The notes below the pieces were generated by a model, which worked only from the letters and a program-made list of their open reading frames with translations, was not told the DNA's origin and did no database searches. Of a stretch of DNA of 64,000 nucleotides, positions 588-46,851 are shown piece after piece; the first letter of the stretch is position 1; the number at the start of each line of letters is the position of its first letter. The position numbers and the translations under genes were made by a program. The DNA is from Nitrospirales bacterium. Lineage in GTDB: Bacteria > Nitrospirota > Nitrospiria > Nitrospirales > UBA8639. The DNA lies in contig OY820905.2 in the NCBI GenBank assembly GCA_963555755.3, positions 4,096,001 to 4,160,000 on the forward strand, in the 5' to 3' direction.

Positions 588-700
588 TTTTTAAAAAAAC
601 GACAGCCCCCCCAGATGAGTGGCTGGGCCGAGGAGTCCTCATTCGCCCTCCCCTTTGTTGGTGTCAGCCTGGTGTCAAGCAACCGGACAACCTGAGCAAG

Positions 701-740
701 AGAGACCCGACGAGACCCGACGAAACCCGATGAAACCAGA
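701..740. repeat. Four 10-bp tandem repeats (agagacccga/cgagacccga/cgaaacccga/tgaaaccaga), possible integrase arm-type sites
   Basis: 10-bp periodicity read directly, ~85 bp from the att repeat. Confidence 0.5.
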
Positions 741-823
741 TGAGGTGAACCCTGCATGAATGAGGGGTGGGAGAGGAAATCGTCAAGCCAGACAACGACT
801 TGAACGATTCCCTTATAAAGGGC

Positions 824-878
824 TGGTGCCGAAGGCGGGAGTTGAACCCGCACACCCGTGAGGGCACTAGAACCTGAA
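824..878 (-). repeat. att site: 55-bp duplication of the 3' part of tRNA-Leu(CAG)
   Basis: tggtgccgaaggcgggagttgaacccgcacacccgtgagggcactagaacctgaa identical to 12445-12499. Confidence 0.95.
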
Positions 879-1920: not shown

Positions 1921-2712
1921 ATGAAACACTCATCCACCACCACAATGAACAGACAAACATCATCTTTACAAGGAAAGACCGCCCGTGCCAAGAGAGGGCT
2001 GATGCGCATAGCCCTGTGTCTGGTCGGGATGGCTTTCACGCTCCTGCCACTGCCAGCCCTTGCCTTAACCTGGAATTTGGCAGACGATTTCTCGCTCTCC
2101 AATCCAAACGCCCCGTGGGAGTACGGAAAGTACACCGGGGGGCTGGACCAGAACACGTTCCAGCAATATGCTAATTCAGAAATTTTTCCTCTTGGGGGGT
2201 CCGGCATACTCCACATTCATCGTAACTCCGGAACGGATGATCCCAACATCATAAAGAACGTTGGCATGGAAGACACTTGCTGTAGTGGTCCAATAACTTT
2301 TCATGCCGGTGCGGTGACGTTTGGGGCGACCTTTGGACCCGCAGTCGTGGTTTGGACCGCGCCATTTGCTGGGATGTTCCAGGTGGATGCCACGTTTGCA
2401 ACCGTTCAACCAGGCGTGAATGTCTTGCCTACTGCTCACGTTTTTAATGGGACTGTCTTTGTCAACCTAGCTGCCATCCCTGTCTTTGGTACCACCAGTG
2501 ATTATAGTGGGCTCTTGGCGCTGGGATTGGGCGAGGAGATCCACTTCGTGGTAGCCCCGACTACGGAAGGAGGGCAGAAGACGGTCGAAGTCTCGGCGAT
2601 CATCAACAGCATTCCGCGCACCAACCCTGTCCCCGAACCCAGCACGATGTTGCTGCTCGGATCAGGCTTAGTCGGACTCATTGGCTACCGGATGAAGAAA
2701 GCACAAGCGTAA
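1921..2712 (+). CDS. PEP-CTERM sorting domain surface protein
   Basis: Signal peptide (..LPALA); C-terminal VPEPSTMLLLGSGLVGLIGYRMKK; RBS aggagg. Confidence 0.92.
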   Translation: MKHSSTTTMNRQTSSLQGKTARAKRGLMRIALCLVGMAFTLLPLPALALTWNLADDFSLSNPNAPWEYGKYTGGLDQNTFQQYANSEIFPLGGSGILHIHRNSGTDDPNIIKNVGMEDTCCSGPITFHAGAVTFGATFGPAVVVWTAPFAGMFQVDATFATVQPGVNVLPTAHVFNGTVFVNLAAIPVFGTTSDYSGLLALGLGEEIHFVVAPTTEGGQKTVEVSAIINSIPRTNPVPEPSTMLLLGSGLVGLIGYRMKKAQA

Positions 2713-2742
2713 ACGCATAGTCGATAATTTAGTCACACAATC

Positions 2743-2780
2743 AAAGAGCCTCACCGTTTCGGCGGTGGGGCTCTTTCTCT
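2743..2780 (+). terminator. Intrinsic terminator (duplicated at ~10792-10829; related copy ~1227-1257)
   Basis: Hairpin aaagagcctcaccg-tttcgg-cggtggggctcttt followed by pyrimidines. Confidence 0.7.
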
Positions 2781-2866
2781 TGGCCGCATTCATCAAGGTC
2801 TGTCACTGACCCAGAGACAGAGCTACAGACCCTATTTTCAATAACTGGACAATACATCCCCAAGCC

Positions 2867-3282
2867 ATGAACATCAGAATAATTCAGTGGAATATTTCAA
2901 TGAAATGCAAGGCCGAAAAAATAGCGTACTGCTTATCCCGCTATATTCATGGCCCCACCATTATTACCTTGCAAGAAGTTTTAAAATCCACATATGCCCA
3001 GATTGCGTCTGTGCTGACCCCTCCTGGAAGAGCGTACAGTCTTGCTTTACGAAAAGCCGGAAACCATGAAGGAAGAAATCGTAAAATGGGTGTCGCGACA
3101 TTCGTTTTCGAAGGCAGAATACCTCATTACGAACTCGTATCACGTAGTATTTTTCCAGAAAGAACCTTGTTTTCGACATGCCAATTCGAGGGGAAGAATA
3201 TTTCCTTGTATCGCACAGGCTTTAGGCGTAACCCTCTCGGAGTTAGTCGGCGATCAACCACAATCAACCAAAAGGAGGTCCG
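2867..3282 (+). pseudogene. Truncated endonuclease/exonuclease/phosphatase-family gene joined to an XRE-HTH C-terminal remnant
   Basis: MNIRIIQWNI..ITLQEV EEP N-terminal motifs; another frame from ~3209 reads IAQALGVTLSELVG. Confidence 0.6.
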
Positions 3283-4470
3283 ATGGGACGGACAAAACGA
3301 AAGGACGGGTATTACGTCGAGTTTCCCGTCATTGACGATGGGAAGGTCTTGACGTTAGCGAGAGGCACGCCTGGTGCCAAGGTGAAACGGTGGCGCGTCG
3401 GGTGCCGTAACAAAACGATGGCTCAAGACCAGGAAACTATTATCAAGAACAAGCTTCTCAACGGAACAATGGTAAGCGTTCGGGCAAAGCTGGCAATAAT
3501 GACCTTCGGCCAATGGGCCAAAGAATATGTGGAGATTGAAGAAGTGAAGTGTCTCCGCTCCTACACTGAGCGATGCCAGCGAATTACCGTGGTCCTTGTT
3601 CCATTCTTCGGCAAGACATTGTTGCAGGACATTACGGCCAAAGATGTAGAAGCCTTCCGCCAGGAGCGGGGGGAGGGGCGTGCTGTGGCTACCGTCAATG
3701 TGGATCACAACCTATTGAAGCACATGTTAAAGCATGCCATGAAGCGCGATTTGATTATGAGGAATGTGGCGTCTTTGGTCACAGCGCCGAAACCAAAGAA
3801 CGCTCGCAATCGAGTGCTCGAACCTGACGAGTGGAACCGGCTCTATGGTGCCGCGCCCGAATGGTTCCAGCCAGTGCTGTTGACGGGCTACCACACGGGG
3901 ATGCGACTAGAGGAAATCCTGACGCTCACGTGGGATCGGGTGGATCTGGAGAAGGGCCGCATGTTCCTTCCTGGACATCTGACCAAAACAGGGCAGGATC
4001 GTACCGTCCCTTTGACGCCGATGCTTCGGAAGGAACTGCAACAACTCCGGGACTATGGTGGCGTTGCTCGAATTCAAGGCTTGGTGTTTCAGAAGGATGG
4101 CCAGAAGATTAACCACAGCTATCGCGTGGTGAAGGAGTTATGCGAGGAGCAGCACATTCCGAACTTCGTCTTCCATGACTTGCGGCATTGTGCTGTCACG
4201 AATTTAGCGGATTCTGGAGTAGAGATTGAGACGATCATGAAAATCGTCGGGCATTCCAGTATTGAAATGTTCCTACGTTACCGCACCATCACGGCGGATA
4301 AATTAGACACCGCCATGTCCAGCCTTAACACGCTAATAACACGGCGTCAAAACGCCGCTCGCCAAGAAAAGGGGTCAGAAAAGGGGTCAAATCTTTGGTT
4401 GACTAAAACTTTAGATTATGTCCCCTGCTCGGAAGAGAAGATCGCGCTCCCAGAAAAAAGCAGTGGATGA
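3283..4470 (+). CDS. Tyrosine recombinase/integrase, copy with last 7 aa replaced by 34 aa from the TIR element
   Basis: GMRLEE, HDLRH, GH..Y catalytic motifs; identical to 11332-12438 up to ..NAARQ. Confidence 0.85.
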   Translation: MGRTKRKDGYYVEFPVIDDGKVLTLARGTPGAKVKRWRVGCRNKTMAQDQETIIKNKLLNGTMVSVRAKLAIMTFGQWAKEYVEIEEVKCLRSYTERCQRITVVLVPFFGKTLLQDITAKDVEAFRQERGEGRAVATVNVDHNLLKHMLKHAMKRDLIMRNVASLVTAPKPKNARNRVLEPDEWNRLYGAAPEWFQPVLLTGYHTGMRLEEILTLTWDRVDLEKGRMFLPGHLTKTGQDRTVPLTPMLRKELQQLRDYGGVARIQGLVFQKDGQKINHSYRVVKELCEEQHIPNFVFHDLRHCAVTNLADSGVEIETIMKIVGHSSIEMFLRYRTITADKLDTAMSSLNTLITRRQNAARQEKGSEKGSNLWLTKTLDYVPCSEEKIALPEKSSG

Positions 4471-4529
4471 AAGAGCGACGAGGAGTTTGAAACGAAACTC
4501 TCAACCAAAGATTTGACCCCTTTTTTTTT
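4366..4529 (+). mobile_element. Non-autonomous TIR element, copy 2
   Basis: Same core and inverted ends as copy 1; sits at the integrase / P450 breakpoint. Confidence 0.85.
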
Positions 4530-4988
4530 ATCATGGTCGAGAACTCGAATTTCACCCTCCCTCCAGGACCCCATCATGCGCTGTGTATATTCCGCCGTGA
4601 CTTTCACCAACCCATCTATTTGATGGCAAGGAAAGCAGCGTTGGACTAACTGTCGTTGCCGAATCCAACTAGCACCTTCGCTAGACATTAACCCATTGCC
4701 AAGTACATTCCAGGTAAAATCCTTTGGGGGACGTGACAAATTCCTGCTAAAAATTCGATGATTGGTTGTCAGGACGGTTTCGATAAGCTCGGGATGACAT
4801 AACAGGTATGCCCTTATGCCGGGAAAGCGAAGGCCTACCACATCACCATACTCGCGCGCGCATTGGGAAACAAACCCTAACGGGTCTCTTCTATACTCTA
4901 GAAGGTTGCCAAAAATGGGGTTGCCTTTAGGCCCAGGCGGAAAGGATTTAGCCGTCACGTAAGCGTACCTTTTCAAAAGGATGTACAA
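4530..4988 (-). pseudogene. Cytochrome P450 N-terminal fragment, truncated by the TIR element
   Basis: PPGPKGNPIFGNLLEYRRDPL..YGDVV..GNGLMSSEGASWIRQRQLV; no heme-Cys region. Confidence 0.8.
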
Positions 4989-5023
4989 AGGAACAACTCA
5001 TTGAACTTGACTCCCCTGAAACT

Positions 5024-6097
5024 CTACTTCTGACGCCAAAGCAACAAATAACCGGTGATCAATTGAATCGAAATCCCAATCCCCACGACGACATAAAGCA
5101 GTTTTGTGAACAATCCTCCGAAATAACCCGCGTGAAGAGGGACATCAAGGTTAATGAAGCGTTGTCCCATTGACGCTGTACGACTGTCTTCTGTTCGAAT
5201 CACGTCTCCACTATGTGGGTCGATATAGACCACACTTGATCCCCTCGGATTGGTATCCTCGGAAAACCGCTTTCGGACTTGAAAAGGCTGCCTAGGTCCT
5301 AAGGGCATTCGAATCATGACGATTTTTCCACCAGAAAGTGTCGTATTCGCAATGTGTACAAGATCGGATACTCGCTGAGGCCTTAGAGGAGCCTCGGATA
5401 ATGTATGTGATGCCAGTGGAGGATTTCCGTTTGGGCCCTTGGCTAGGCTTTGAACCAAATTTCCAACTAGCGGAAAGGAGAAATAGACACCCGTTAAGGC
5501 AATAACCAGCACAACAATGGCTGAATGTATTCCCCACATATTATGCATATCCAAAACGGCATGCTTCCATCCTGAATTTAATCTGAGACGCCAAATGGTC
5601 TTGAGTGTGTTAGGTGATCTCCTCCACCATAGGATCAGGCCTGTTAGTGTCGAGACAATTAGTAGAATACTCCCCATGCCATTCAGAGTTATTCCAATAG
5701 GCCCTCCTAGAAATAGATCCATATGAAAAATTAATATAAACCCCATCAGTGATCCACTCATAGTCCTGGAACCTAAGATTTCACCGGAATACGGGTTAAC
5801 ATAGATGCGGGAATTCCACGAATTGATAAGTAGTTCGTAGACTCCTTCAGGTGACCTGGGGAACGTAATTGAGATGATTCGATCTGGAGAACGGGTACTT
5901 TGAACGTTGGTCATAATCTCTTCAAGAGATAAAATTTCCCCCTGCGGCGTAACTCGAAGCAGTTGAGGATTCAGCCATTCATCAATTTCGGAATGGAACA
6001 CGAGAATACTTCCTGTCGTACCCATCAGGAGAAAATATACGCCAATATACAGATTTAAATAACGATGAATACTATGAAAAATTCTTTGTGGCTGCAT
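5024..6097 (-). CDS. PepSY-associated TM helix protein (PiuB-like)
   Basis: IHRYLNL..TGSILVF, YVNPYSGEILG, FHMDL, MHNMWG, LHAG histidine motifs. Confidence 0.88.
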   Translation of the reverse strand: MQPQRIFHSIHRYLNLYIGVYFLLMGTTGSILVFHSEIDEWLNPQLLRVTPQGEILSLEEIMTNVQSTRSPDRIISITFPRSPEGVYELLINSWNSRIYVNPYSGEILGSRTMSGSLMGFILIFHMDLFLGGPIGITLNGMGSILLIVSTLTGLILWWRRSPNTLKTIWRLRLNSGWKHAVLDMHNMWGIHSAIVVLVIALTGVYFSFPLVGNLVQSLAKGPNGNPPLASHTLSEAPLRPQRVSDLVHIANTTLSGGKIVMIRMPLGPRQPFQVRKRFSEDTNPRGSSVVYIDPHSGDVIRTEDSRTASMGQRFINLDVPLHAGYFGGLFTKLLYVVVGIGISIQLITGYLLLWRQK

Positions 6098-6151
6098 AGC
6101 TTGGTTCCTAGATCACGAAGAAGTAAATATCCACGGGCTTACCCCCCCTGG

Positions 6152-8055
6152 CAGGGCCATTTCATTCTTTTTATAAGCAAGGGATTCCATGAGGTTTTTT
6201 GTGCCCTCTTTTTCAGGGCAGGGCCATGCGGATGGCTAAATGGGGCTTGCCCCAGAGCAGTCTACACGCCTGCGCGATATTGGTGTAGCCTTTCAGGCGT
6301 AAGAGACTGATGGCATAGCGTCTCAGACAGGTCATGACCATTGGGCCATTGAGACTTCGTATCTGACTCCTGTCTTCATCAAAGGTGACGTCCAACACAT
6401 AATGCTGCTTATTCTCCACACTCCAATGCTTTCGGTTTTGCGAGAGGATGGTCTTCGGCCCCGCCTTGTCTTTGGACTGACTCGTGACACCGCAGACCGC
6501 TTCGACGGTCGTGAGGCCCTGCTTGAGATGCGTCACTTCCCTCTCAATGCAGAAGACTTGCTGGACATGAGGAAAGTTGACATAGGCATTCAGGGAGTCA
6601 TCGCACCAGATCCTGCGGGTCGTGATCTGCCCATGGCCTTTCTCGGTGGTGGCATAATCGCACCGGCGTGCTCGCAACGCTAAGGCCTCAATGTCGTGCT
6701 TCAAGGTGGGCTGGTTTCCCTTGACGGTGAAGACGAAGTCGGCGCCGCGTTCGTGCACCAGGTACTCGGCAATCTCTTTCTGGGTGAGGAGCGCATCCGC
6801 CGTGATCACCTTCCCTGCGATCTCGAGCGCATCTAACAGGGGCCGCACGCAGGGGATCTCATTGGTCTTGGAGTGAACTTTTTTTGGGTGAGGTGGCGCC
6901 CGGCTTGATGGGTGACGGCGCTGAGGACGTGGGGCTGTTCGCTTGGGACCTTCGACGTCCCCCGCATGGTCTTCCCATCAATGGCAATGCCCTGATCCTC
7001 CCCGCCGAAGGTGTCCAGCCACCGGCCGAGCAGGGTATCGACTTCACAGGGGTCGACGGCCGTGATAAAGCGGTAAAGAGTGCTGCGGCTCGGGACGAGG
7101 TAGCGCCCCCCTCGCTGAGTACAGCCTAGCCGCTTGCGCATCGGCTGCGATAACTGCTGGGCCCAGTCCGAGATCGCTTCATAGCCGCGCGCGCCGCACA
7201 AGGTGGCACAGAACATGATCGCCGTGAGGGCGCGTCGGGTGTGCCGTTGCCCTTGCAAATGGCGGGGATCGGTCAGCTGCACCACATACGTAAAGAGGGA
7301 GTCCGTCTGTTTTGTATTCAATCTCATCTGAGGCGCTTCTCCTTTCTGATAGGGCTGATCAAGCATCGGGCGTGCAAGGATCTCTCGGGCTTGGGGATGC
7401 AGCCGCACGACTAGGATGCGCTTCGGTCTCTCATGCTGAACATAACACGTGTTCGACTTGCGAAACCCTCGTGTCAGACCGAGCTCGTGCCACCCGGCGG
7501 CCCGATAGCAGGTCCCGGTGAAGCGGGCAGGATCGACGAAGGTCTCTAAGAGGAGCAAGGGGTAGCCGTGGTACAGTTGCCAATCGGCCGAGATCCGTTT
7601 CGCGCAGAGCGACAGGACTTTCGAGGCGAGGTTCTTTTGCGAACAGCCCGGCAGCATGAGAAACCAGGTGTTGTTGGCCAGTAAATGGAGTCGTTGCCAT
7701 TGAAAACAGGGGGGCCAGCCGATCCAGTGGTCTCGCGGTCTCGATTTGAGGGCCGCCGCCGCAAACACCAGCAAGGCCAGCCAGCGATCCTGCACACAGG
7801 CGAGATATTGTATCGATTGGCCAATCAGCGGGGCATGACCGAGGTAGTGGTGTCTGTCGAGAAGGGTCTTGAAGGCGTCCTTTTCGTCTCGGACAATTGG
7901 GCGAACCACGACTTGCCTCAGATCAATGTCCGGCTGTCCGCTTGGCGATTCGTCTGGCATACAAAAGAGTATGCCGTAAACGAAAAGAAAAAGCCAGCCT
8001 AAATCGATTATTCCTTATTATCTATAAAGTTACACTTTAATATGAAATAGCCCTG
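6152..8055 (-). mobile_element. ISAs1-family insertion sequence
   Basis: IRs CAGGGCCATTTCAT / CAGGGCTATTTCAT; 10-bp target duplication CCCCCCCTGG at 6142-6151 and 8056-8065. Confidence 0.92.
6213..7960 (-). CDS. DUF4338 domain + ISAs1 DDE transposase, joined by a -1 frameshift at A AAA AAG (6878-6885)
   Basis: ORF1 has HHYLG..LETFVD..GTCYRAAGW then IAIDGKTMRG; -1 frame gives KVHSKTNEIP into ORF2 (ITADAL, VKGNQP, HWSVEN). Confidence 0.88.
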
Positions 8056-8606
8056 CCCCCCCTGGTCCGCCGCTCTAGCCTTGATAGATAACATCAGGTC
8101 AAAGCCGTCCGAGTGCAAAGAGCCCTGGTGAAATAGCCGACAACGACGGAACAGCTCTTTCCTTACATGGCATTAATTCTTCTCTTCAGCTCGCCGTCCT
8201 CCGCCCAGGATTTTCTTCAGCTTTTTTTCGAACACACTTCAGAGTATGCTTTGACACCGAGATGACTCAGACCACACCTTGCACGTCAATGCGAAGAATT
8301 GGGTGCTCGTCCAATTCGGCAAACACACGGTCCAATACGTCCCTTGAAAGAGCACGGTATCCTGGCGTAGTAGGCCGGTGGCCAAAAATTCGGTTCGCCC
8401 TCACGACGTGTTCCCTGTTAAGCAACAGACCAAAGATGATCCATGGGCCTACGTTATGTCCACAGGACATCCCTTTAAGACGTCACAATATTTCCTATTG
8501 ATTTGGAGAATATGGAAGTTCTGGAAGTCCATAGTTTAGCCAATGATCAATGGTGACTAATAAACGGAACGAAACGCCCGATTTGATTGAGAAGACAAAA
8601 AGATAC

Positions 8607-8824
8607 AAAAGGGGTCAAATCTTTGGTTGACTAAAACTTTGAAAAGGGGTCAAATCTTTGGTTGAAAAGGGGTCAAATCTTTGGTTGCCTAAAACTTTAG
8701 ATTATGTCCCCCTGCTCGGAAGAGAAGATCGCGCTCCCAGAAAAAAGCAGTGGATGAAGACGAGGAGTTTGAAACGAAACTCTCAACCAAAGATTTGACC
8801 CCTTTCTGACCCCTTTCCCCTTTC
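8607..8824 (+). mobile_element. Non-autonomous TIR element, copy 3
   Basis: Three left-end reiterations, stuttered right end; core has small indels. Confidence 0.85.
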
Positions 8825-8856
8825 TAAACCGTCTTTTTTCCCAAGGTTTATAACAC

Positions 8857-9159
8857 CTACCGAAGTTGTAGTTCTAGTTTTAAGCCAACTGCTTCCGCAG
8901 CCTTTTTCATAGTGTGCAACGTCACCGATTCATTTTCTGGATCTAGTAAGCGATCCAATTGAGATCGGCTGGTTTCCATGTGGGAAGCCATGGCTGCCTT
9001 CGATAGATTCTTTCGTTCCATGGCTTCGCTCAGTTTGTATGACAGTACTTTTTTAATCGCATCAGTTTGACAATCTTCGTACTGTCCTTCCGCTTTCAGT
9101 AATCCTTCAAGCGTGGACCCGGATCGTGGGTTAATCTTTTTCCGTTTCATATCGCTCAT
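8857..9159 (-). CDS. XRE-family antitoxin
   Basis: LSKAAMASHMETSRSQLDRLLDP HTH; overlaps the upstream toxin gene. Confidence 0.85.
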   Translation of the reverse strand: MSDMKRKKINPRSGSTLEGLLKAEGQYEDCQTDAIKKVLSYKLSEAMERKNLSKAAMASHMETSRSQLDRLLDPENESVTLHTMKKAAEAVGLKLELQLR

Positions 9160-9505
9160 GCTCCTTCTTGCGTTTGTTTGCGAGCTTTAATTCTTTTTCT
9201 GGGGTCTTTTGTGATTTCTTCACAAATCCATGAAGCAGCACCATTTCAGGACCACTCACATAGAAAAACACTCGTGCAATTCGTCCATCCGGTAAATCAC
9301 TGCGGACTTCACGAAGCCCAGCATAGCCTGATAAAGACCTACACAGTGGTTGGCCACAGGGCCAACCAAATTCGACGGTCATGATGTCCCTGCCGATGAT
9401 CTTCCGATTGGCACCAGCCAATTCCAACAGCCATTCCCTAACAGGCTCTTTCCCACTGGGAAGCCTGTAAAACATAGCTGTAATGACCTTCTGAACTTGA
9501 CTCAC
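9131..9505 (-). CDS. RelE/ParE-family (Gp49-like) toxin
   Basis: GKEPVREWL..LREVRS..ARVFF..LLHGFVKKSQKTP. Confidence 0.88.
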   Translation of the reverse strand: MSQVQKVITAMFYRLPSGKEPVREWLLELAGANRKIIGRDIMTVEFGWPCGQPLCRSLSGYAGLREVRSDLPDGRIARVFFYVSGPEMVLLHGFVKKSQKTPEKELKLANKRKKEHERYETEKD

Positions 9506-9652
9506 ATATTATAGTACCAAAAAAGGTACATTCCTGCAATCTTTTTTTCGAGGTTAAATATCCCAATGTCCCACTGAAGGTTGGCTTTTTCCGAAATGTG
9601 CCTTAGAGTTAAAAGTTGGCCAGAAAAGGTAAGGGAGAAACTCTCAAAAAGG

Positions 9653-9804
9653 GGTTCTGTCGCAAATAATAGAGTTGTGAGTTACGCCACTGGTTTTCAT
9701 GTTGGACCAAGTTGAAAAACTCCAGTAAAGTTGACAATTCTCGTCTGCGGGACACGGAGATAAAACCCCTTATTGCCTTCAAAAACATTGTTTGCGACAG
9801 AACC
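9653..9804. mobile_element. 152-bp MITE with IS6-like ends
   Basis: Inverted repeats GGTTCTGTCGCAAATAAT / GGTTCTGTCGCAAACAAT (17/18); no clear target duplication. Confidence 0.65.
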
Positions 9805-10169
9805 GAAAAAATCGCTTCCGTCAGCATACGTTAGGCCCCCTCTCGAAACGCGGCTATTTTTTCAGAGGTTTTTAAAATCTGGGGGGAATCTATCCCCTTC
9901 CTGCCAAGTTATTTGTTTGGCCATTTCTTTTTCAACTTCTCTACCAGCCACTGCCATTTCCCATGTTCGTGTGGTAATTTCAATATCCCATCCAAATTAG
10001 CTCCGGTAAGGTTTCCCCCTCCCTTCTGAATCTATCTTGAAAGACCCTGCGGTTGATGAATAGAGCCCCGTCCGATATTCTCCTGAGGCGTGTTGGAATG
10101 AACGCAGATTCGCTAGTCGACTTGCCGCCCCAAATCCCTTCATGAGGGTGCTATGCCCTGTGCGTTTTA

Positions 10170-10391
10170 GAAAAGGAAAAGGGGTCAAATCTTTAAAAGA
10201 AAAGGGGTCAAATCTTTGGTTGACTAAAAAAGGGGTCAAATCTTTGGTTGACTAAAACTTTAGATTATGTCCCCTGCTCGGAAGAGAAGATCGCGCTCCC
10301 AGAAAAAAGCAGTGGATGAAAGAGCGACGAGGAGTTTGAAACGAAACTCTCAACCAAAGATTTGACCCCTTTTTCTTTTTGACCCCTTTTC
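10170..10391 (+). mobile_element. Non-autonomous TIR element, copy 4
   Basis: Same core; right end abuts the start of the 2-kb duplication. Confidence 0.85.
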
Positions 10392-10761
10392 AGTCGTGGT
10401 TTGGACCGCGCCATTTGCTGGGATGTTCCAGGTGGATGCCACGTTTGCAACCGTTCAACCAGGCGTGAATGTCTTGCCTACTGCTCACGTTTTTAATGGG
10501 ACTGTCTTTGTCAACCTAGCTGCCATCCCTGTCTTTGGTACCACCAGTGATTATAGTGGGCTCTTGGCGCTGGGATTGGGCGAGGAGATCCACTTCGTGG
10601 TAGCCCCGACTACGGAAGGAGGGCAGAAGACGGTCGAAGTCTCGGCGATCATCAACAGCATTCCGCGCACCAACCCTGTCCCCGAACCCAGCACGATGTT
10701 GCTGCTCGGATCAGGCTTAGTCGGACTCATTGGCTACCGGATGAAGAAAGCACAAGCGTAA
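10391..10761 (+). pseudogene. 5'-truncated copy of the PEP-CTERM gene
   Basis: Identical to the C-terminal ~122 codons of 1921-2712; no signal peptide or promoter. Confidence 0.85.
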
Positions 10762-10915
10762 ACGCATAGTCGATAATTTAGTCACACAATCAAAGAGCCT
10801 CACCGTTTCGGCGGTGGGGCTCTTTCTCTTGGCCGCATTCATCAAGGTCTGTCACTGACCCAGAGACAGAGCTACAGACCCTATTTTCAATAACTGGACA
10901 ATACATCCCCAAGCC

Positions 10916-11331
10916 ATGAACATCAGAATAATTCAGTGGAATATTTCAATGAAATGCAAGGCCGAAAAAATAGCGTACTGCTTATCCCGCTATATTCATG
11001 GCCCCACCATTATTACCTTGCAAGAAGTTTTAAAATCCACATATGCCCAGATTGCGTCTGTGCTGACCCCTCCTGGAAGAGCGTACAGTCTTGCTTTACG
11101 AAAAGCCGGAAACCATGAAGGAAGAAATCGTAAAATGGGTGTCGCGACATTCGTTTTCGAAGGCAGAATACCTCATTACGAACTCGTATCACGTAGTATT
11201 TTTCCAGAAAGAACCTTGTTTTCGACATGCCAATTCGAGGGGAAGAATATTTCCTTGTATCGCACAGGCTTTAGGCGTAACCCTCTCGGAGTTAGTCGGC
11301 GATCAACCACAATCAACCAAAAGGAGGTCCG
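10916..11331 (+). pseudogene. Duplicate EEP-family/XRE remnant
   Basis: Identical to 2867-3282. Confidence 0.6.
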
Positions 11332-12438
11332 ATGGGACGGACAAAACGAAAGGACGGGTATTACGTCGAGTTTCCCGTCATTGACGATGGGAAGGTCTTG
11401 ACGTTAGCGAGAGGCACGCCTGGTGCCAAGGTGAAACGGTGGCGCGTCGGGTGCCGTAACAAAACGATGGCTCAAGACCAGGAAACTATTATCAAGAACA
11501 AGCTTCTCAACGGAACAATGGTAAGCGTTCGGGCAAAGCTGGCAATAATGACCTTCGGCCAATGGGCCAAAGAATATGTGGAGATTGAAGAAGTGAAGTG
11601 TCTCCGCTCCTACACTGAGCGATGCCAGCGAATTACCGTGGTCCTTGTTCCATTCTTCGGCAAGACATTGTTGCAGGACATTACGGCCAAAGATGTAGAA
11701 GCCTTCCGCCAGGAGCGGGGGGAGGGGCGTGCTGTGGCTACCGTCAATGTGGATCACAACCTATTGAAGCACATGTTAAAGCATGCCATGAAGCGCGATT
11801 TGATTATGAGGAATGTGGCGTCTTTGGTCACAGCGCCGAAACCAAAGAACGCTCGCAATCGAGTGCTCGAACCTGACGAGTGGAACCGGCTCTATGGTGC
11901 CGCGCCCGAATGGTTCCAGCCAGTGCTGTTGACGGGCTACCACACGGGGATGCGACTAGAGGAAATCCTGACGCTCACGTGGGATCGGGTGGATCTGGAG
12001 AAGGGCCGCATGTTCCTTCCTGGACATCTGACCAAAACAGGGCAGGATCGTACCGTCCCTTTGACGCCGATGCTTCGGAAGGAACTGCAACAACTCCGGG
12101 ACTATGGTGGCGTTGCTCGAATTCAAGGCTTGGTGTTTCAGAAGGATGGCCAGAAGATTAACCACAGCTATCGCGTGGTGAAGGAGTTATGCGAGGAGCA
12201 GCACATTCCGAACTTCGTCTTCCATGACTTGCGGCATTGTGCTGTCACGAATTTAGCGGATTCTGGAGTAGAGATTGAGACGATCATGAAAATCGTCGGG
12301 CATTCCAGTATTGAAATGTTCCTACGTTACCGCACCATCACGGCGGATAAATTAGACACCGCCATGTCCAGCCTTAACACGCTAATAACACGGCGTCAAA
12401 ACGCCGCTCGCCAAGTCACTGAAATCACTGCACTTTAA
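11332..12438 (+). CDS. Tyrosine recombinase/integrase (intact, 368 aa)
   Basis: R, HxxR, H, Y catalytic motifs; adjacent to the tRNA. Confidence 0.93.
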   Translation: MGRTKRKDGYYVEFPVIDDGKVLTLARGTPGAKVKRWRVGCRNKTMAQDQETIIKNKLLNGTMVSVRAKLAIMTFGQWAKEYVEIEEVKCLRSYTERCQRITVVLVPFFGKTLLQDITAKDVEAFRQERGEGRAVATVNVDHNLLKHMLKHAMKRDLIMRNVASLVTAPKPKNARNRVLEPDEWNRLYGAAPEWFQPVLLTGYHTGMRLEEILTLTWDRVDLEKGRMFLPGHLTKTGQDRTVPLTPMLRKELQQLRDYGGVARIQGLVFQKDGQKINHSYRVVKELCEEQHIPNFVFHDLRHCAVTNLADSGVEIETIMKIVGHSSIEMFLRYRTITADKLDTAMSSLNTLITRRQNAARQVTEITAL

Positions 12439-12444
12439 TTGAAT

Positions 12445-12530
12445 TGGTGCCGAAGGCGGGAGTTGAACCCGCACACCCGTGAGGGCACTAGAACCTGAAT
12501 CTAGCGCGTCTGCCATTCCGCCACTTCGGC
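12445..12530 (-). tRNA. tRNA-Leu(CAG)
   Basis: Reverse complement GCCGAAGTGGCGGAATGGCAGACGCGCTAGATTCAGGTTCTAG...GTTCAACTCCCGCCTTCGGCACCA; long variable arm, encoded CCA. Confidence 0.97.
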
Positions 12531-14796: not shown

Positions 14797-14893
14797 AGAG
14801 GCATTGTAGTCAAGGCTTGAAGCCGGTGTCGAGGAAGGGCGGGAAACGTGAGGAATATTGCAGGGTGGGCTATGCCCACCATTTATTTTTGTA

Positions 14894-15137
14894 CGGGGTT
14901 TCGTCCTCGCGCGACGAGGCCCTTTTGTTTCGGCAAAAGGACCCAAAACCATTTTTGCCCGTGCGCGGCCCCTCCGACCCTGCCGGAGCAGGTTCTCCGG
15001 GGTGCCTGGTCCACCGCCCCGAATCAAGATGGCTCGGAAACTCGCTCCGAGGTGCAAGGCCACCTCTCCGCTCAGACAGCCCTCGCCAAAGCAGTAGGAT
15101 TCGGGACGGCGGCCCAGCCGCGCCCAACGCAGGTGAA
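14894..15137 (+). repeat. Structured ~240-bp dispersed repeat, copy A
   Basis: Shares cttttgtttcggcaaaag...aaaacca...ccgaatc...ctcgctccg...ctcgcc...gattcgg with seven other copies. Confidence 0.8.
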
Positions 15138-15263
15138 TGGCAGGGCATAAAAAATCAAGCCCCGCACTGGGTAGTGCGGGGTTTATGAATCACAATGGGG
15201 TGTGGCGATAGATCAAACTAGAAAAACCGAAGTGTTTGTTTTTATCTTTTCATTCTGCAGGCA

Positions 15264-15461
15264 TCCCCGCCTTCGGATGCGGCGGAGCCGGAGCCCCGAA
15301 TCGACTTTTTGGCGAGGGTTGTTTGAGCGGAGCGAGTTCCCTCGCCATGTTATTCGGGGCGTAGGCGGAGGGACCCCCTTGGGGTCGCATACGGGCGGAA
15401 ATGGTTTTGGTCACTTTTGCCGAAACAAAAGTGACTCGGCGTGTGGGGGCGAAACCCCACA
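15264..15461 (-). repeat. Structured repeat, copy B
   Basis: Reverse-complement copy of the same family. Confidence 0.8.
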
Positions 15462-15522
15462 TTATAATTCTTGTGCCTAACCTGGCACGTTCCAGAAATA
15501 ACTACAGATTTCTCCCTCCGGT

Positions 15523-15646
15523 CGAAATGACAAGGGAGAGGCGAAATGACAAGGGAGAGGCGAATGACAAAGGAGAGGCGAAATGACAAGGGAGAGGCGA
15601 ATGACAAAGGAGAGGCGAAATGACAAGGGAGATGCGAAATGACAAG
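15523..15646 (+). repeat. Tandem repeat of 18/19-bp unit CGAAATGACAAGGGAGAGG (6 units plus a partial)
   Basis: Read directly; the unit begins with the REP end CGAAATGACA. Confidence 0.9.
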
Positions 15647-15712
15647 AAAAATTTCACATAGCCTCTCTGCTTACTCCAAAGCGGTCATATTCTCGCTAAA
15701 CGATTGCAAAAA

Positions 15713-35428: not shown

Positions 35429-35563
35429 GTCATTCCCGACATTTTTTATCGGGAATCCAGGTTTTCCCTCTCACACTTCAACCCCTCTTTTGTCATTTCG
35501 ACCCATGGGAGAAATCTCTCGTTCGGTAATGGGGGGAGATTTCTCGCTCCGCTCGAAATGACA
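35429..35563. repeat. REP-like palindrome cluster (similar cluster at 35940-36076)
   Basis: gtcattcccgac..atcgggaatccag plus gtcatttcgacc..gagaaatct / agatttctc..cgaaatgaca. Confidence 0.75.
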
Positions 35564-35599
35564 AATAAGTTTTCTTGTAAATGGTTGAAAAGTTTTTAT

Positions 35600-35872
35600 G
35601 TGGGGTGTCGTCCCCACGCGACGAGGCACTTGTGTTTCGGCAAAAGTGCCCAAAACCACGTTTGCCCGTGCATGGCCCTGCGGGTGTCTCTGCCTCCGCC
35701 CCGAATCCTTCGACTCCGCTCAGGACAGGTCAGATCAGATGGCTGCGCAACTCGCGGAATCTATCCTGAGCCCTTCGACAAGCTCAGGCCAGGCCTTGTC
35801 GAAGGGCTCAAACAGTGCTCGCCAAAGGGGTCGATTCGGTGCTCCGTCTCCGCCGCGCACGAAGGCGGGGCC
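35600..35872 (+). repeat. Structured repeat, copy C, with nested ccttcgac..ctcagg palindromes
   Basis: Same family as copy A. Confidence 0.8.
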
Positions 35873-36129
35873 GAAGTGACATTTCTATATGTTGAAGGGA
35901 TGGGAAAGGTTTGTTAAGTTGAGGTCGTTTAATTTTTCACGTCATTCCCGACATTTTTAATCGGGAATCCAGGTTTTTCCCTCTCACCCTTCAACCCTTC
36001 CTTCGTCATTTCGACCCTTGGGAGAAATCTCTCGTTCGACAATGAGGGGAGATTTCTCGCTCCGCTCGATATGACAATCAATGATTATGTAAGGTTGCTC
36101 CTTCATTTTCTGCCTCGATCTTGGGACTC

Positions 36130-36246
36130 CGCGTTGGGCGAGGCGGAGGGCTGCGCACAGGCGAGAATGGTTTTGGGTCCTTGCGCCGAAACAAAAGGCC
36201 TGCCCTGAGTCTTGGCGAGGGGACCTCGTCGCGCGGGGGGGGGGGG
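36130..36246 (-). repeat. Structured repeat, copy D (shortened; remainder at 38825-38846 beyond the IS)
   Basis: atggttttgggtcc..gccgaaacaaaagg..cctcgtcgcgcg | IS | aaccccgc. Confidence 0.7.
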
Positions 36247-42550: not shown

Positions 42551-42625
42551 TACTTGTTTATGGCTTGCCGAAAAGAATCGCGTCATTTCCGACATCCTTA
42601 ATCGGGAATCCAGGTTTATTTTAAT

Positions 42626-42846
42626 CGGGGTTTCGCCCCCGAGCGACGAGGCACTTTTGTTTCGGCAAAAGGACCCAAAACCACTTCCGCCCGTGCGCGG
42701 TCCCTCCGAGCCTGCTCAGAAGCAGGCTCTCCGGGATGCCTCCGCCTCCGTCCCGAATCAAGATGGCGAGGGAACTCGCTCCGCTCAAACAGCCCTCGCC
42801 GAGAGGTCGATTCGGGACTCCGGCTCCGCCGCGTCCGAAGGCGGGC
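42626..42846 (+). repeat. Structured repeat, copy E
   Basis: Same family; preceded by a REP at 42581-42613. Confidence 0.8.
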
Positions 42847-42978
42847 AGTCATTACAGAAATAGTTTTTTATTGAACATCACTCGTTCATTGTCTTGTCAG
42901 GTCTTAGGGCATATACTTTCAACCTTGTGACAAAAAGAGTAGAAGATCTGTATTGCGGTAGTAGAGTAGGGGGACAAG

Positions 42979-43248
42979 ATGCCAGCTATTTCGATGTTCT
43001 ATGGAATTATTATTTACATGTATTTCCTTGATAACAAGCAGCATCAAAGACCGCATATTCATGTCAAATATCAGGAACATGAAGTTATTGTTGCCATCCC
43101 GGATGGTGGGGTTCTTGAAGGGAGTATCCCCAACCCAAAAATGAAGTTGCTCCAAGCTTGGGTTGAGTTGCATAAGGAAGAATTGGAAGCGGACTGGGAA
43201 CTTGCTGTGTCTGGTCAACAGCCTTTTAAGATTGAACCGTTGAGGTAA
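42979..43248 (+). CDS. DUF4160 family protein (putative toxin)
   Basis: MPAISMFYGIIIYMYF..HQRPHIHVKY. Confidence 0.88.
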   Translation: MPAISMFYGIIIYMYFLDNKQHQRPHIHVKYQEHEVIVAIPDGGVLEGSIPNPKMKLLQAWVELHKEELEADWELAVSGQQPFKIEPLR

Positions 43249-43251
43249 ATT

Positions 43252-43485
43252 ATGAATCCAAGAATTGTAGAAGTAATGCCCACCGATGATTACAAACTCA
43301 AGTTGGTTTTTACCAATGGGGAGCGAGGGGTGTATAACTGTTTCGACTTGTTAGACTTTGGCGTGTTTCAAGAGCTGCAGGATAAGAACTATTTCAAGCA
43401 AGCCAAAGTGTTGGACGGAACTGTGGTCTGGCCTCATGAGCAAGATATCTGTCCCGATACCCTCTATCTCGATTCAGAAAAATAG
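43252..43485 (+). CDS. DUF2442 family protein (putative antitoxin)
   Basis: YKLKLVFTNGE..GTVVWPHEQDICPDTLY. Confidence 0.88.
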   Translation: MNPRIVEVMPTDDYKLKLVFTNGERGVYNCFDLLDFGVFQELQDKNYFKQAKVLDGTVVWPHEQDICPDTLYLDSEK

Positions 43486-43602
43486 GGAGGTCGGGTGAAT
43501 GGGTAATCAGGCAAGGTAAGGTCTCTATTGTTCTTTCTAATCCTTCCAAGTATTTGAGTTATTCCTCCAGTCGTAACCGGGAATCCAGAATTAATTTTAT
43601 TC

Positions 43603-43872
43603 AGGGTTTTGCCCTCGAGCGACGAGGCCCCTTCGACTGGGCTCAGGGCAGGCCTTTTGTTTCGGCAAAAGTGCCCAAAACCACTTCCGCCCGTTCACGG
43701 TCCCTCCGGGCCTGCTTCGAAGCAGGTTCTCCGGGATGCCTCCGCCTCCGTCCCGAATCAAGATGGCGAGGGAACTCGCGGAGTCTATCCTGAGCTTGTC
43801 GAAGGACTCAAACAGTCCTCGCCCGAGAGGTCGGATTCGGGGCGATGGCCCAGTCGCGCCCAACGCGGTGAA
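43603..43872 (+). repeat. Structured repeat, copy F
   Basis: Same family, with two nested palindrome insertions. Confidence 0.8.
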
Positions 43873-44240
43873 GGGCCAAGACTAGAGTGCCAAATGAACA
43901 GAAAGGAGGAGCATCCCATCGATATCGCAGTCATGTCGAGCCCTCGACTAATTTTCAACGTGGCTGACCCACAGAGGTTACCTTAGGAGTAAATGGCTGA
44001 CAGAAAAGGGTAGCGTTCTCTTTTTCAGGTGCAACCGAGGACCAGGTGGCGTTCGCAGTCCGCTGGATGGTATATGAACCCATTCAAGGAGGGGTGTTAT
44101 GCCGATCCGCATAAGATGCTGAAATAATTGGACTCATGCGTATAACCAATTGAAACGACAACAGTTCCGGCGTATTCTTCAGAAATATCGATGGCGTGTT
44201 ATACGGATATAAACCCGAAGATCCTTCTCTTACACGGATC

Positions 44241-44260
44241 CATCTAAACATTGTTAGGTG
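44241..44260 (+). other. attI-like integron recombination site
   Basis: CATCTAAACATT-GTTAGGTG; GTTRRRY core complementary to the cassette R'' CACCTAAC. Confidence 0.55.
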
Positions 44261-44288
44261 TACAAAACTGGAGTGCAATTTCAAATCC

Positions 44289-44792
44289 ATGGAACTAAAA
44301 ATCAAATCAATGCTTGCAGTATTTTTGCTATTAACTTCTGGCGCTGCCTTGGGAATAGAGCAATCTTTTATCGCTGATACAGAGCGATTTGGCGTTCGTT
44401 TATTTTTAGTTCCAGACGCAGATGCATTTGTCGAAATGTGGTCAAAGCCAGAAACACCAAAATTGACCGTATTCAAACAAACAACAGTTAACACTAAATT
44501 CGCGGGCATCATTCTTTATTGGGGTGGTGGTGCCAATTCCAATGGCGAGTGTAATATTCAATTGCAAACCACGGTCTTAGAGAGAGGCACTGTTCTCGCA
44601 ACAGGCCCAGAAATGCCCGTATGCTCTCGGCACCAACCGCCCAAACCAAGTGTCTTGTCACTTTCTGACACAATCATCGACCTTATTGCATCCGGTGACC
44701 CAACGCAATTGGTCGTTCAAGTAAAAGTAACCGACAAAATCAATAACGAAACCTTGTTGGTTGAGGCGCCTATTGAAGTGGTGGCAGAGTGA
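44289..44792 (+). CDS. Secreted hypothetical protein (integron gene cassette)
   Basis: Signal peptide; bounded by GTTAGGT and an attC. Confidence 0.75.
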   Translation: MELKIKSMLAVFLLLTSGAALGIEQSFIADTERFGVRLFLVPDADAFVEMWSKPETPKLTVFKQTTVNTKFAGIILYWGGGANSNGECNIQLQTTVLERGTVLATGPEMPVCSRHQPPKPSVLSLSDTIIDLIASGDPTQLVVQVKVTDKINNETLLVEAPIEVVAE

Positions 44793-44796
44793 GCGC

Positions 44797-44898
44797 ACCT
44801 AACAAGGCATTGCACTCGGACTCCGCCTACTGTCACATTTTTTGCGAAAAGCGCAAAAAATGCGCCAGCAGGCTACGCCAGTGAATGCGGCGTTAGGT
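44797..44898 (+). other. Integron attC site
   Basis: ACCTAAC...GTTAGGT; GCATTGCACT / AGTGAATGC with extrahelical base; central hairpin; starts 4 bp after the stop codon. Confidence 0.88.
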
Positions 44899-45124
44899 TT
44901 CGAAGAGGACTGGCTAGTTGGAAGATGTACGGTCTACATTGGTGGATCCGGCTATCACACTGTCGGGATTTCGAATATGGATTCACGGTCGAGAGTGTCC
45001 GGAAAGGGGGACGTTCCTTTTTTGAAGGCGCATGAATTGGGGGCAAGCATGAGTATTGAGTTCGTAGAGTTTCCCCTCCAAGCCCAATTTGAAAACTTGG
45101 TTTGTTTCTTTCTTGAGTGTCTTA

Positions 45125-45317
45125 CCGCCTTCGGGCGCGGCGGAGCCTCCGTACCGAATCGACCTCTCGGCGAGGGCTGTTTGAGCGGAGCGAGTTCCCT
45201 CGCCATCTTATTCGGTACGGAGGCGGAGGAACCCCCATGGGGCCGCGCACGGGCGAAAATGGTTTTGGGCACTTTTGCCGAAACAAAAGTGCCTCGTCGG
45301 CGGGGGCGAAACCCCGC
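45125..45317 (-). repeat. Structured repeat, copy G
   Basis: Same family; REP at ~45376-45408. Confidence 0.8.
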
Positions 45318-45523
45318 ATTAATAATTTTGACTAGAAATCTGGCAAATAGTAGATGGCGAGGAAGAGGGGAAGACCTGGATCCCCGATAAAGGATGTCGG
45401 GGATGACAGCAATGGCGGCAAAGTAAATGATTCGTATGCGTGAATCCTCGGTGGGAAATTCAGAAATTGCGGAAAAACGGAAATGGATCTATAATGGTTC
45501 CATAATAGAACCATTTGGAGGCT

Positions 45524-45763
45524 ATGATGTCCGTCAATCTTTCTGTCAAAAATGTCCCAAAGGAATGGGTGGAGCAATTACGGCAACGAGCCCACAAGCA
45601 TCATCGCTCGCTTCAAGGTGAACTGCTGGCCATACTTGAGGAAAGCGTGAATCAGCAAGACAAGATTTCTCCACAAGGCCTCTTAGCAGAAGTACGGCAA
45701 CGTGGACTGCGCACACCAAAAGAGTCGGTGGCAATGATTCGCAAGGATCGTGATGGCCACTAA
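45524..45763 (+). CDS. FitA/Arc-like ribbon-helix-helix antitoxin
   Basis: NLSVKNVP..LRQRAHKHHRSLQGELLAILE. Confidence 0.87.
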   Translation: MMSVNLSVKNVPKEWVEQLRQRAHKHHRSLQGELLAILEESVNQQDKISPQGLLAEVRQRGLRTPKESVAMIRKDRDGH

Positions 45764-46136
45764 GGTCATTGATACATCAGCCTTGGCCGCCGTCGTGTTT
45801 GCTGAACCCGATGGTCAGCGGATTGCGGCTCAAATGGAAAATCATGATCTCCTTGCTCCATTCCTACTACCCTTTGAGTTGGCGAATGTTTGTCTCATGA
45901 AGATTCGAAGGCATCCTGCCCAAAAAACGTTATTGTTGGGTGGTTTTGAGATGGTCGGTCGTCTGCCGCTGACGTTCATGGCGGTCAACATGACTGAGGT
46001 CCTTGGCCTAGCCCAAGACAAGGCTCTGACAGCTTACGATGCTTCTTTTTTCTGGTTAGCGAAGACGCTCGATGTCGAATTGATGACCTTGGATAAGACC
46101 TTAGCTAAGGCGTTTGCATCTCGAAAAGGCAAATAG
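45753..46136 (+). CDS. vapC: VapC PIN-domain toxin
   Basis: VIDTSAL, FELAN, LTAYDA, LMTLD. Confidence 0.88.
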   Translation: MATKVIDTSALAAVVFAEPDGQRIAAQMENHDLLAPFLLPFELANVCLMKIRRHPAQKTLLLGGFEMVGRLPLTFMAVNMTEVLGLAQDKALTAYDASFFWLAKTLDVELMTLDKTLAKAFASRKGK

Positions 46137-46217
46137 GGCCTGCTTGCCAGGCAGGGGGTATTAATGAGTTTGTCCTTCCCCTCCATTTGAAAAAATTAGT
46201 TTGTTTCTTGAGTGCCT

Positions 46218-46537
46218 TGCCGCCTTCGGGCGCGGCGGAGCCTCCGTACCGAATCGACCTCTCGGCGAGGGCTGTCTGAGCGCAGCGAGTTCCCGAGCCA
46301 TCTTATCGGTACGAAGGCGAAGGCACCCGGAAGAGAATGATCAAAACGTCCGTCTGCGGCGTTTTCGGCCCTTTGTCGTGCTCACGTACTAACGCGTACG
46401 CTGCGCGCGCCAAAGCGCCTGCGGCCTTGCTGACGAACGTTTTGATCATTCTCTGTAGGGCCGCCCACGGGCGAAAATGGTTTTGGGCACTTTTGCCGAA
46501 ACAAAAGTGCCTCATCGTGTGGGGGCGAAACCCTGCA
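46218..46537 (-). repeat. Structured repeat, copy H, containing a 123-bp inverted-repeat insert (46332-46454)
   Basis: Same family; insert bounded by AGAGAATGATCAAAACGT and its complement. Confidence 0.8.
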
Positions 46538-46851
46538 TAATATTTCTTGAAACACACAGACCGATTAGCTAACAAGAATAGGGGCGAAGAAAAACCTGGA
46601 TCCCCGATTAAGGATGTCGGGGATGACCTCAAGGAAAATTGGTGTGTGGTGCACACTCCACCATCCCTTCTCAAACAGATTTCTCACATCCGTTCGAAAT
46701 GACAACGGTTTCGGAATTTGCCTCCCCCCTTTCCTACAAGGTAGAGTTTATCAGTCAGAATTGACGTCATAGGTTTTAAATCAATCTAACAATGTTGTTA
46801 AAAGTTACAGGGGCATGAGCGTTTACCCTGATTATAGAAAGGACGAGTTTT

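Follow-up and report, generated by a model that had tools for sequence, protein, structure and literature searches.

A kilobase-scale direct duplication abutting both ends of a TIRtron-bounded composite block in a Nitrospirales genome: a probable replicative insertion

Within a 64,000-nucleotide stretch of the Nitrospirales bacterium assembly GCA_963555755.3 (contig OY820905.2, positions 4,096,001 to 4,160,000; hereafter the window, whose coordinates we use except where the prefix C1 marks a genome position), we find a 6,024-bp block that is bounded by miniature inverted-repeat transposable elements (MITEs) of the TIRtron type and lies between two direct copies of a 2,025-bp segment, here called D. 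The two copies (2342-4366 and 10391-12415, both on the plus strand) had been recognised as a repeat in a preliminary description of this DNA, and a base-by-base comparison returns 2025 matches in 2025 positions, with no mismatch and no possibility of extending the repeat by a single base on either side. D is present twice in the whole 4.62-Mb genome, with no third copy. Copy 1 ends with G4366, which is followed by AAAAGGGGTCA of element 2, and copy 2 begins with C10391, directly after TGACCCCTTTT of element 4, such that the terminal G/C of D can be assigned to D or to the element at both new junctions; this agrees with the earlier statement that copy 1 ends at the first base of element 2 and copy 2 starts at the last base of element 4. 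At both new junctions a G is directly followed by AAAAGGGGTCA, on the plus strand where copy 1 ends at its right side and on the minus strand where copy 2 begins at its left, while the right border of copy 2 is ancestral.

Four gene-less elements lie in this part of the window. Element 1 (373-590, core 396-541) lies outside the duplication, carries tandem partial end repeats and differs from elements 2 and 4 at one position in 146 nt. Element 2 (4367-4529, core 4379-4524), which has one 12-nt end repeat, forms the left boundary of the block, and element 4 (10171-10390, core 10228-10373), with tandem end repeats and a core identical to that of element 2, forms its right boundary. Between them lies the diverged element 3 (8607-8816), distinguished by one substitution, a 1-nt insertion and a 5-nt deletion, and with tandem left-end repeats. 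Elements of this kind are about 150 bp long with a 146-nt core and occur in 14 near-full copies in the genome at 73-100% identity, among which elements 2 and 4 are the only pair with identical cores.

The block carries two stretches of cargo, both on the minus strand. Cargo 1 (4530-8606) comprises a P450 gene that breaks off where element 2 begins and keeps positions 1-131 of the 462 in its Pfam model, a PepSY-TM gene (5024-6097) and a multicopy insertion sequence (IS; 6150-8055) with about 30 near-identical copies in the genome, which from its DDE_Tnp_1/DDE_Tnp_1_assoc pair we take to be of ISAs1 type. Contigs of two public sequencing runs (X19 and X22) connect 6141 to 8056 and so lack this IS, which is therefore younger than the block, or polymorphic. 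Cargo 2 (8817-10170) contains a Gp49-like/helix-turn-helix (HTH) gene pair (8857-9505), likely a toxin-antitoxin system, and a dispersed 156-bp repeat, and relatives were found for that pair and that repeat only. The sequence at 4530-6149 has no match among 200 other genomes of the order, and this, together with a P450 gene cut at an element end, would fit a history of repeated capture.

Depth of coverage supports the presence of two copies of D. In one of five public runs, a 1,659-nt contig inside D has a depth of 172 against 81-98 for its single-copy neighbours, and the corresponding values in the other four are 109 against 47-65, 287 against 126-139, 415 against 153-223 and 48 against 18-32; in all five, read-derived contigs stop at the borders of D. 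These runs represent at most three samples from two studies, possibly including the source sample, and are not an independent population sample, and no single read-derived record crosses the entire block. The approximately twofold depth and the contig breaks at the borders nonetheless exclude a simple misassembly, and the single-copy state that was to be checked for is not borne out. A joint of 10376 to 4376, present in contigs at single-copy depth, may be an effect of repeat mapping, while cargo depth is equal to or slightly under that of the flanks, falling below it in runs X18 and X22, where collapsed alleles or GC bias could be responsible; neither the joint nor this deficit is used as evidence here.

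Genes that cross the borders of D indicate which of these borders are old. A PEP-CTERM protein gene (1921-2712, plus strand, 263 aa) is intact where it runs over the left border of copy 1 and nowhere else, and that border is therefore ancestral. A tyrosine integrase with a normal end (11332-12438, plus strand, 368 aa), beside a tRNA-Leu(CAG) gene (12445-12530, minus strand), is found only across the right border of copy 2, and its C-terminus is shared by all 3 of the 3 relatives that have the gene, 2 of which run into the same tRNA. The left integrase copy (3283-4470, plus strand, 395 aa) has the same first 361 residues and gained its last 34 from element 2, and the insertion cost no gene function. 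From the relatives' integrase ends and the intact reading frames, rather than from an empty allele of this strain, we infer an ancestral order A-D-B with a single D, in which case the new junctions would be those between D and element 2 and between element 4 and D. The locus accordingly has the form known as Dup-IS-Dup, with an insert between direct copies of a segment that, on this reconstruction, was ancestrally single.

The target of the insertion appears to be a small integrase island at tRNA-Leu, with that tRNA as integration site and with a 55-nt copy of its 3' part (824-878, plus strand) as a putative attL-like left end. A shorter second att-like remnant of tRNA-Leu lies 4 kb upstream (C1:4092628-4092760; window 596-878), and the two suggest nested older islands at this tRNA. 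Upstream of the integrase, a frame at 2867-3352 without a Pfam or NCBIfam match is fused to an HTH-like stretch; its start may resemble an endonuclease/exonuclease/phosphatase domain. The left flank of element 1 (1-369) is part of a 563-bp, 96.6% inverted paralogue of C1:4036440-4037002, which runs on without an element. Dispersed hairpin-type repeats and a 37-bp tandem array at 14880-15650, 35430-36240 and 42580-46630 are unrelated to the duplication.

A candidate source of transposase for these elements is present elsewhere in the genome, where a Pfam search gives 17 Y1-transposase matches. The product of a gene at C1:761.65-762.61 kb (319 aa) matches Y1_Tnp (PF01797, E 7.9e-12) and, over residues 227-293, Bac_DnaA_C (PF08299, E 7.7e-10); the HUH-motif residues H60-H62 and the tyrosine Y119 are invariant in 5 paralogues of the genome. 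The gene is enclosed by terminal inverted repeats, with GGGGTCAAATCTTTGGTTGA on both sides, and the ends of our elements are identical to its ends over 25 and 27 nt (19 and 27 nt for element 3). TIRtrons have been described as encoding a Y1-HUH protein (TIRYT) of about 320 aa with a DnaA-C-like HTH, within inverted repeats that share a GGGG[AT][CG]A core, and gene-less TIR repeat families are known for them (Di Nocera et al. 2013, PMC3733652; Quentin et al. 2018, PMC6006769); protein type, inverted ends and gene-less families here are the same as those set out in these papers. The published end consensus GGGGWSAS is matched at 7 of 8 positions (the first 7), the eighth base being an A and outside the consensus; other end families of the genome (GGGGTCAG) match at 8 of 8. 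By domain content and GGGGTCA inverted ends, the gene would match TIRYT of subclass 2.1, and elements 1-4, being short, gene-less and multicopy and having ends in common with an autonomous element, are on these sequence grounds MITE derivatives of a TIRtron with a matching intact transposase gene. Membership of IS200/IS605 was rejected, as the 319-aa protein with its DnaA-C tail and the inverted ends differ from a short TnpA without an HTH tail or terminal inverted repeats.

The family is unusually active in this host: tandem GGGGTCA pairs are present in 203 of 401 phylum genomes searched (some as simple repeats), and the 80 pairs of the source genome compare with at most 27 elsewhere. A plasmid collection gave one TIRYT match at E<1e-30. 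At L180:7402-11012, in another genome (G119), two tandem TIRYT genes of 99.6% identity stand on either side of a 1.4-kb cargo gene, so that autonomous copies form the composite there.

Junctions of the family across the source genome have several features in common. Position -5 is a G in 53 of 80 outermost ends, against 25.5% expected. Comparison with uninterrupted copies of flanks shows that this G is often common to target and end, and in several self-end repeats it is donor-derived, so that the cut is placed 4-5 nt outside GGGG rather than at an exact position. Paired elements (n=21) show no fixed short target duplication, 16 having 0 nt and the maximum being 5, and a classical DDE IS or composite, for which a common short length is expected, was rejected on this basis. 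Partial repeats of an end often trail behind it, and in local duplications of 12-430 bp one border is fixed at an end whereas the position of the other is free; both features indicate that ends are joined one at a time. The two breakpoints of D conform, since each has the form of a G followed by N4-GGGGTCA. The preliminary description had pointed to a resemblance between the sequence before the left breakpoint (tttggaccc) and the element end (tttgacccc). The resemblance exists (7 of 9 positions), yet a guiding role for it is not supported: a match of this quality is expected within 10 nt of a random site in 1.6-3.1% of cases, this one lies 4 nt out of register, and inspection of the other flank junctions with an uninterrupted copy revealed no such motif, so that it is probably due to chance.

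Duplications at element ends are not confined to this locus. Among 22 two-copy direct repeats no more than 60 kb apart in the genome, 5 abut an end in the orientation of a target duplication (280, 436, 617, 2,025 and 2,174 bp) and a sixth (457 bp) abuts one in the other orientation; for a random boundary the expectation is 0.7-0.8% each. In Paraglaciecola (locus L129), an intact TIRYT element has a 1,237-bp repeat of 99.9% identity directly against its left end, and its right end cuts an nrdD gene; the other border of the repeat has no element end, and either left border may be the new one. The gene duplicated there is single in 5 of the 5 fetched relatives that hold it. A search for further kilobase-scale duplications at other elements, as proposed in the preliminary description, thus brought one-ended cases (2,174 bp here, 1,237 bp in Paraglaciecola) but no second two-ended one. 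All end-linked repeats found are at most 2.2 kb long, but they are few.

Several of these places have features of their own. At C1:387742-394188, the left copy of the 2,174-bp, 99.7% duplication stops at a TIRtron-type end and its other border lies at another repeat; the gene mostly duplicated is presumably putA-like. At C1:87773-96860, four 148-bp MITEs of a sister family alternate with short cargo, the 617-bp duplication abuts the first of them, and the repeats start with GTTAGAT, which we take to resemble integron attC cores. An apparent two-ended pair at C1:2226062/2226199 was discarded, being a one-ended D-E-D-E duplication broken by another element. A repeated element of about 2.7 kb interrupts ends of the window family inside the GGGG run at C1:2223298-2226040 (also at 240691, 245502, 687542 and 802705), and a similar interruption is seen at two external loci (L096 and L182). 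An IS4-like DDE element about 1.49 kb long, found at C1:176560-178040 and at some 17 further sites, lies within GGGTCAGGTCT sequences and apparently targets one family of TIRtron ends.

The reading that we favour, and consider reasonably probable, is that the locus arose in one TIRYT-catalysed replicative event in which each outer end of the block was joined on its own to a different strand of the target, at points 2,025 bp from one another. HUH enzymes keep the 5' side of the cut as a phosphotyrosine (PMC5027513). Following this general chemistry, TIRYT would cut 4-5 nt outside GGGG and hold the element 5' end, before transferring each 5' end to a 3' terminus of the target, most often a G. 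Because TIRtron ends are inverted, their 5' ends lie on opposite strands, and a two-ended event must use both. One end would join the top-strand 3' end at 4366 and the other the bottom-strand 3' end at 2342, after which replication would copy the stretch between the joins to give A-D-block-D-B. This could occur by fusion of a donor circle (element, cargo 1, element 3, cargo 2) as a cointegrate; were only one element of the circle active, synthesis from the 3' ends left free on the donor would run through that element and on into D, yielding identical outer elements, as seen. Alternatively, the joins could be made behind a replication fork, one to each sister arm, with D copied by normal replication, a route that would account for the size of D being near that of one Okazaki fragment. 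The product would be the same either way. A crossover between the D copies would then free an 8,049-bp circle with D as new cargo between the ends, restoring the empty site. The idea of a recent target-site-like duplication is upheld by element ends at both new junctions and by 0 substitutions in 2,025 bp; of the earlier suggestion of replicative or template-switch insertion with breaks 2 kb apart, the replicative part gives the best reading, whereas pure polymerase template switching is disfavoured, since both junctions fall at the fixed position of the family with only 1 nt of homology.

Strand preference bears on the fork route. With the replication axis set by GC skew (origin 2.71 Mb, terminus 0.57 Mb; dnaA at 2.92 Mb), GGGGTCA of unpaired intact ends lies on the lagging-template sense in 42 of 51 cases, or 46 of 51 (27 of 31 loci) after a stricter partner search, compared with fractions of 0.54-0.61 for control words; one end family (F4) is confounded by the IS4-like element, and its removal leaves 38 of 39. 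No strand bias is seen for the additional end repeats of paired ends (17/26 against 14/22). IS608 acts on the lagging-strand template, where 1.5-2 kb of single-stranded DNA lies between Okazaki fragments (PMC5027513), and the bias in the source genome would be compatible with comparable HUH action at forks.

A number of results weigh against this replicative two-ended insertion. The strand bias was not reproduced in two further genomes, where 4 of 7 sites (G022) and about 4 of 12 (G010, counted by hand) have the lagging-template sense, and as a one-genome result it gives the fork route weak support. For the cointegrate route, elements 2 and 4 differ in their outer end repeats, which calls for extra local events. 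Neither a donor circle nor an empty allele of this strain was found in the contigs, runs X1 and X2 giving diverged pieces only. Both breakpoints lie at ends in only 1 of the 22 genome repeats, namely at D, and the random-boundary expectation is lenient, since islands are where ends as well as duplications accumulate. Metagenome, genome and viral collections supplied 152 external loci, 118 of them with candidate ends (290 in all), and none is two-ended, although most of these loci are short-read contigs that would collapse such repeats; 15 regions of four long-contig genomes (G120, G119, G121 and G010) have one-ended repeats only, of 50-430 bp, and the 7 tandem-end sites of G022 include no two-ended case. 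Finally, the literature searched contains no measured TIRYT activity.

The strongest rival, which we nevertheless consider unlikely, is a two-step history in which the block inserts at one edge of D, its other end joins the far edge and releases a circle of block plus D, and this circle enters the D of an uninterrupted chromosome by a RecA-type crossover. The sequence that results would be identical, many one-ended joins are present in this genome, and a 39-bp piece lies between a right and a left end at C1:2226205-2226243. Such a history would nevertheless require that the cell also contain an uninterrupted allele and that three events take place before a single substitution in 2,025 bp, and the contigs give no circle-specific signal, cargo depth being no higher than that of the flanks. 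Capture on a circle followed by homologous recombination, raised in the preliminary description, therefore stays a live rival without being the preferred reading.

Unequal crossing-over in the middle element, between alleles A-D-[E2-cargo1-E3]-B and A-[E3-cargo2-E4]-D-B, would produce exactly A-D-E2-C1-E3-C2-E4-D-B; element 3 does differ from the outer pair, and the island is an insertion hot spot. We regard this as improbable, as it demands that two lineages each acquire an insertion, at sites 2 kb from each other, that DNA pass between them and that a crossover fall within about 140 bp, and is hard to reconcile with identical D copies and identical cores of elements 2 and 4. Slightly less probable again is a host-made duplication, through fork collapse or template switch, into whose break the block was patched, as proposed for IS481 (PMC11708052). 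Precedent for Dup-IS-Dup is published, and one border lacks a recognisable element end in the Paraglaciecola locus and in four source-genome cases; against this, no repeat or homology connects the edges of D, and both target ends finish in G, the base enriched at family junctions, which suggests selection by the enzyme. We give scarcely any credence to an error of assembly or to the action of the neighbouring tyrosine integrase: the region is rich in repeats and no one read or contig spans the block, but doubled depth and border breaks recur in five runs, and an integrase-driven origin is rejected because the breakpoints lie away from the att-like sites (824-878 and 12445-12499), one of them inside the integrase gene.

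Preferring the replicative two-ended insertion, we may compare it with known systems. Tn3 and IS26 form replicative cointegrates in which element and target are copied during fusion, while alternative transposition of maize Ac reportedly makes tandem duplications in an inter-sister event. These DDE enzymes act on element 3' ends with a fixed short stagger, whereas here the polarity would be reversed and the stagger free. IS608 is not known to make a target duplication. IS200/IS605 elements such as IS608, and Replitrons, have Y1-HUH chemistry in common with TIRtrons, yet IS608 uses one strand and hairpin ends (PMC5027513), and Replitrons are eukaryotic with direct terminal repeats, in contrast to inverted TIRtron ends; insertions of Replitron-1 follow RG and come with target duplications that vary, as well as with read-through ends (bioRxiv 10.1101/2022.12.15.520654). 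The nearest architecture is that of IS481 in Pseudomonas fluorescens SBW25, a Dup-IS-Dup with 59,943-bp copies at a REP-cluster site that is cleanly lost by recombination (Ngan et al. 2024, PMC11708052). It shares with our locus a new element between long segment copies and no short target duplication; it involves a DDE enzyme and a single IS, whereas our locus belongs to an HUH family in which one-ended cases recur, and has a composite with cargo between copies of 2,025 bp. Long variable duplications without a settled mechanism are also described for the DDE elements IS1549/IS1634 (direct repeats of 8-514 bp, PMC2266710) and for restriction-modification genes, under the name 'insertion with long target duplication' (from tens of bp up to about 420 bp among the rows examined in PMC2853133), neither of which is an HUH system. 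The Dup-IS-Dup architecture is thus already known for DDE transposases, and what appears new here is an HUH TIRtron composite with a kilobase-scale duplication. Kilobase duplication at both ends of a composite, G at -5 and tandem end repeats add to the accessible text of the two TIRtron papers, in which insertion mechanism, target duplication, junction position and cargo do not appear; a wider search of the main texts of mostly non-subscription literature found no mechanism or long duplication for TIRtrons.

TIRYT genes constitute the second largest subclass of Y1 transposase-like genes, present in 14.9% of strains (PMC6006769), and how an HUH enzyme moves an element with inverted ends is made directly testable by this locus, which supplies an intact enzyme gene, a matching mini-element, an inferred cut position and a fresh two-ended product. 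As a possible but tentative generalisation, TIRtrons may be a widespread class of replicative HUH transposons that work on two strands and join each end without regard to the other, with duplications up to the size of an Okazaki fragment, and in which recombination would then turn each duplication into cargo between element copies, giving strings of element, cargo and element and moving kilobase pieces of the host; the D locus would be this cycle caught mid-way. If kilobase duplication is the rule, it would offer a route of gene duplication and capture that is scarless after repeat collapse, and would bear on the unexplained long target duplications of other elements. TIRtrons would, if this is true, gain a means to duplicate and carry off host genes.

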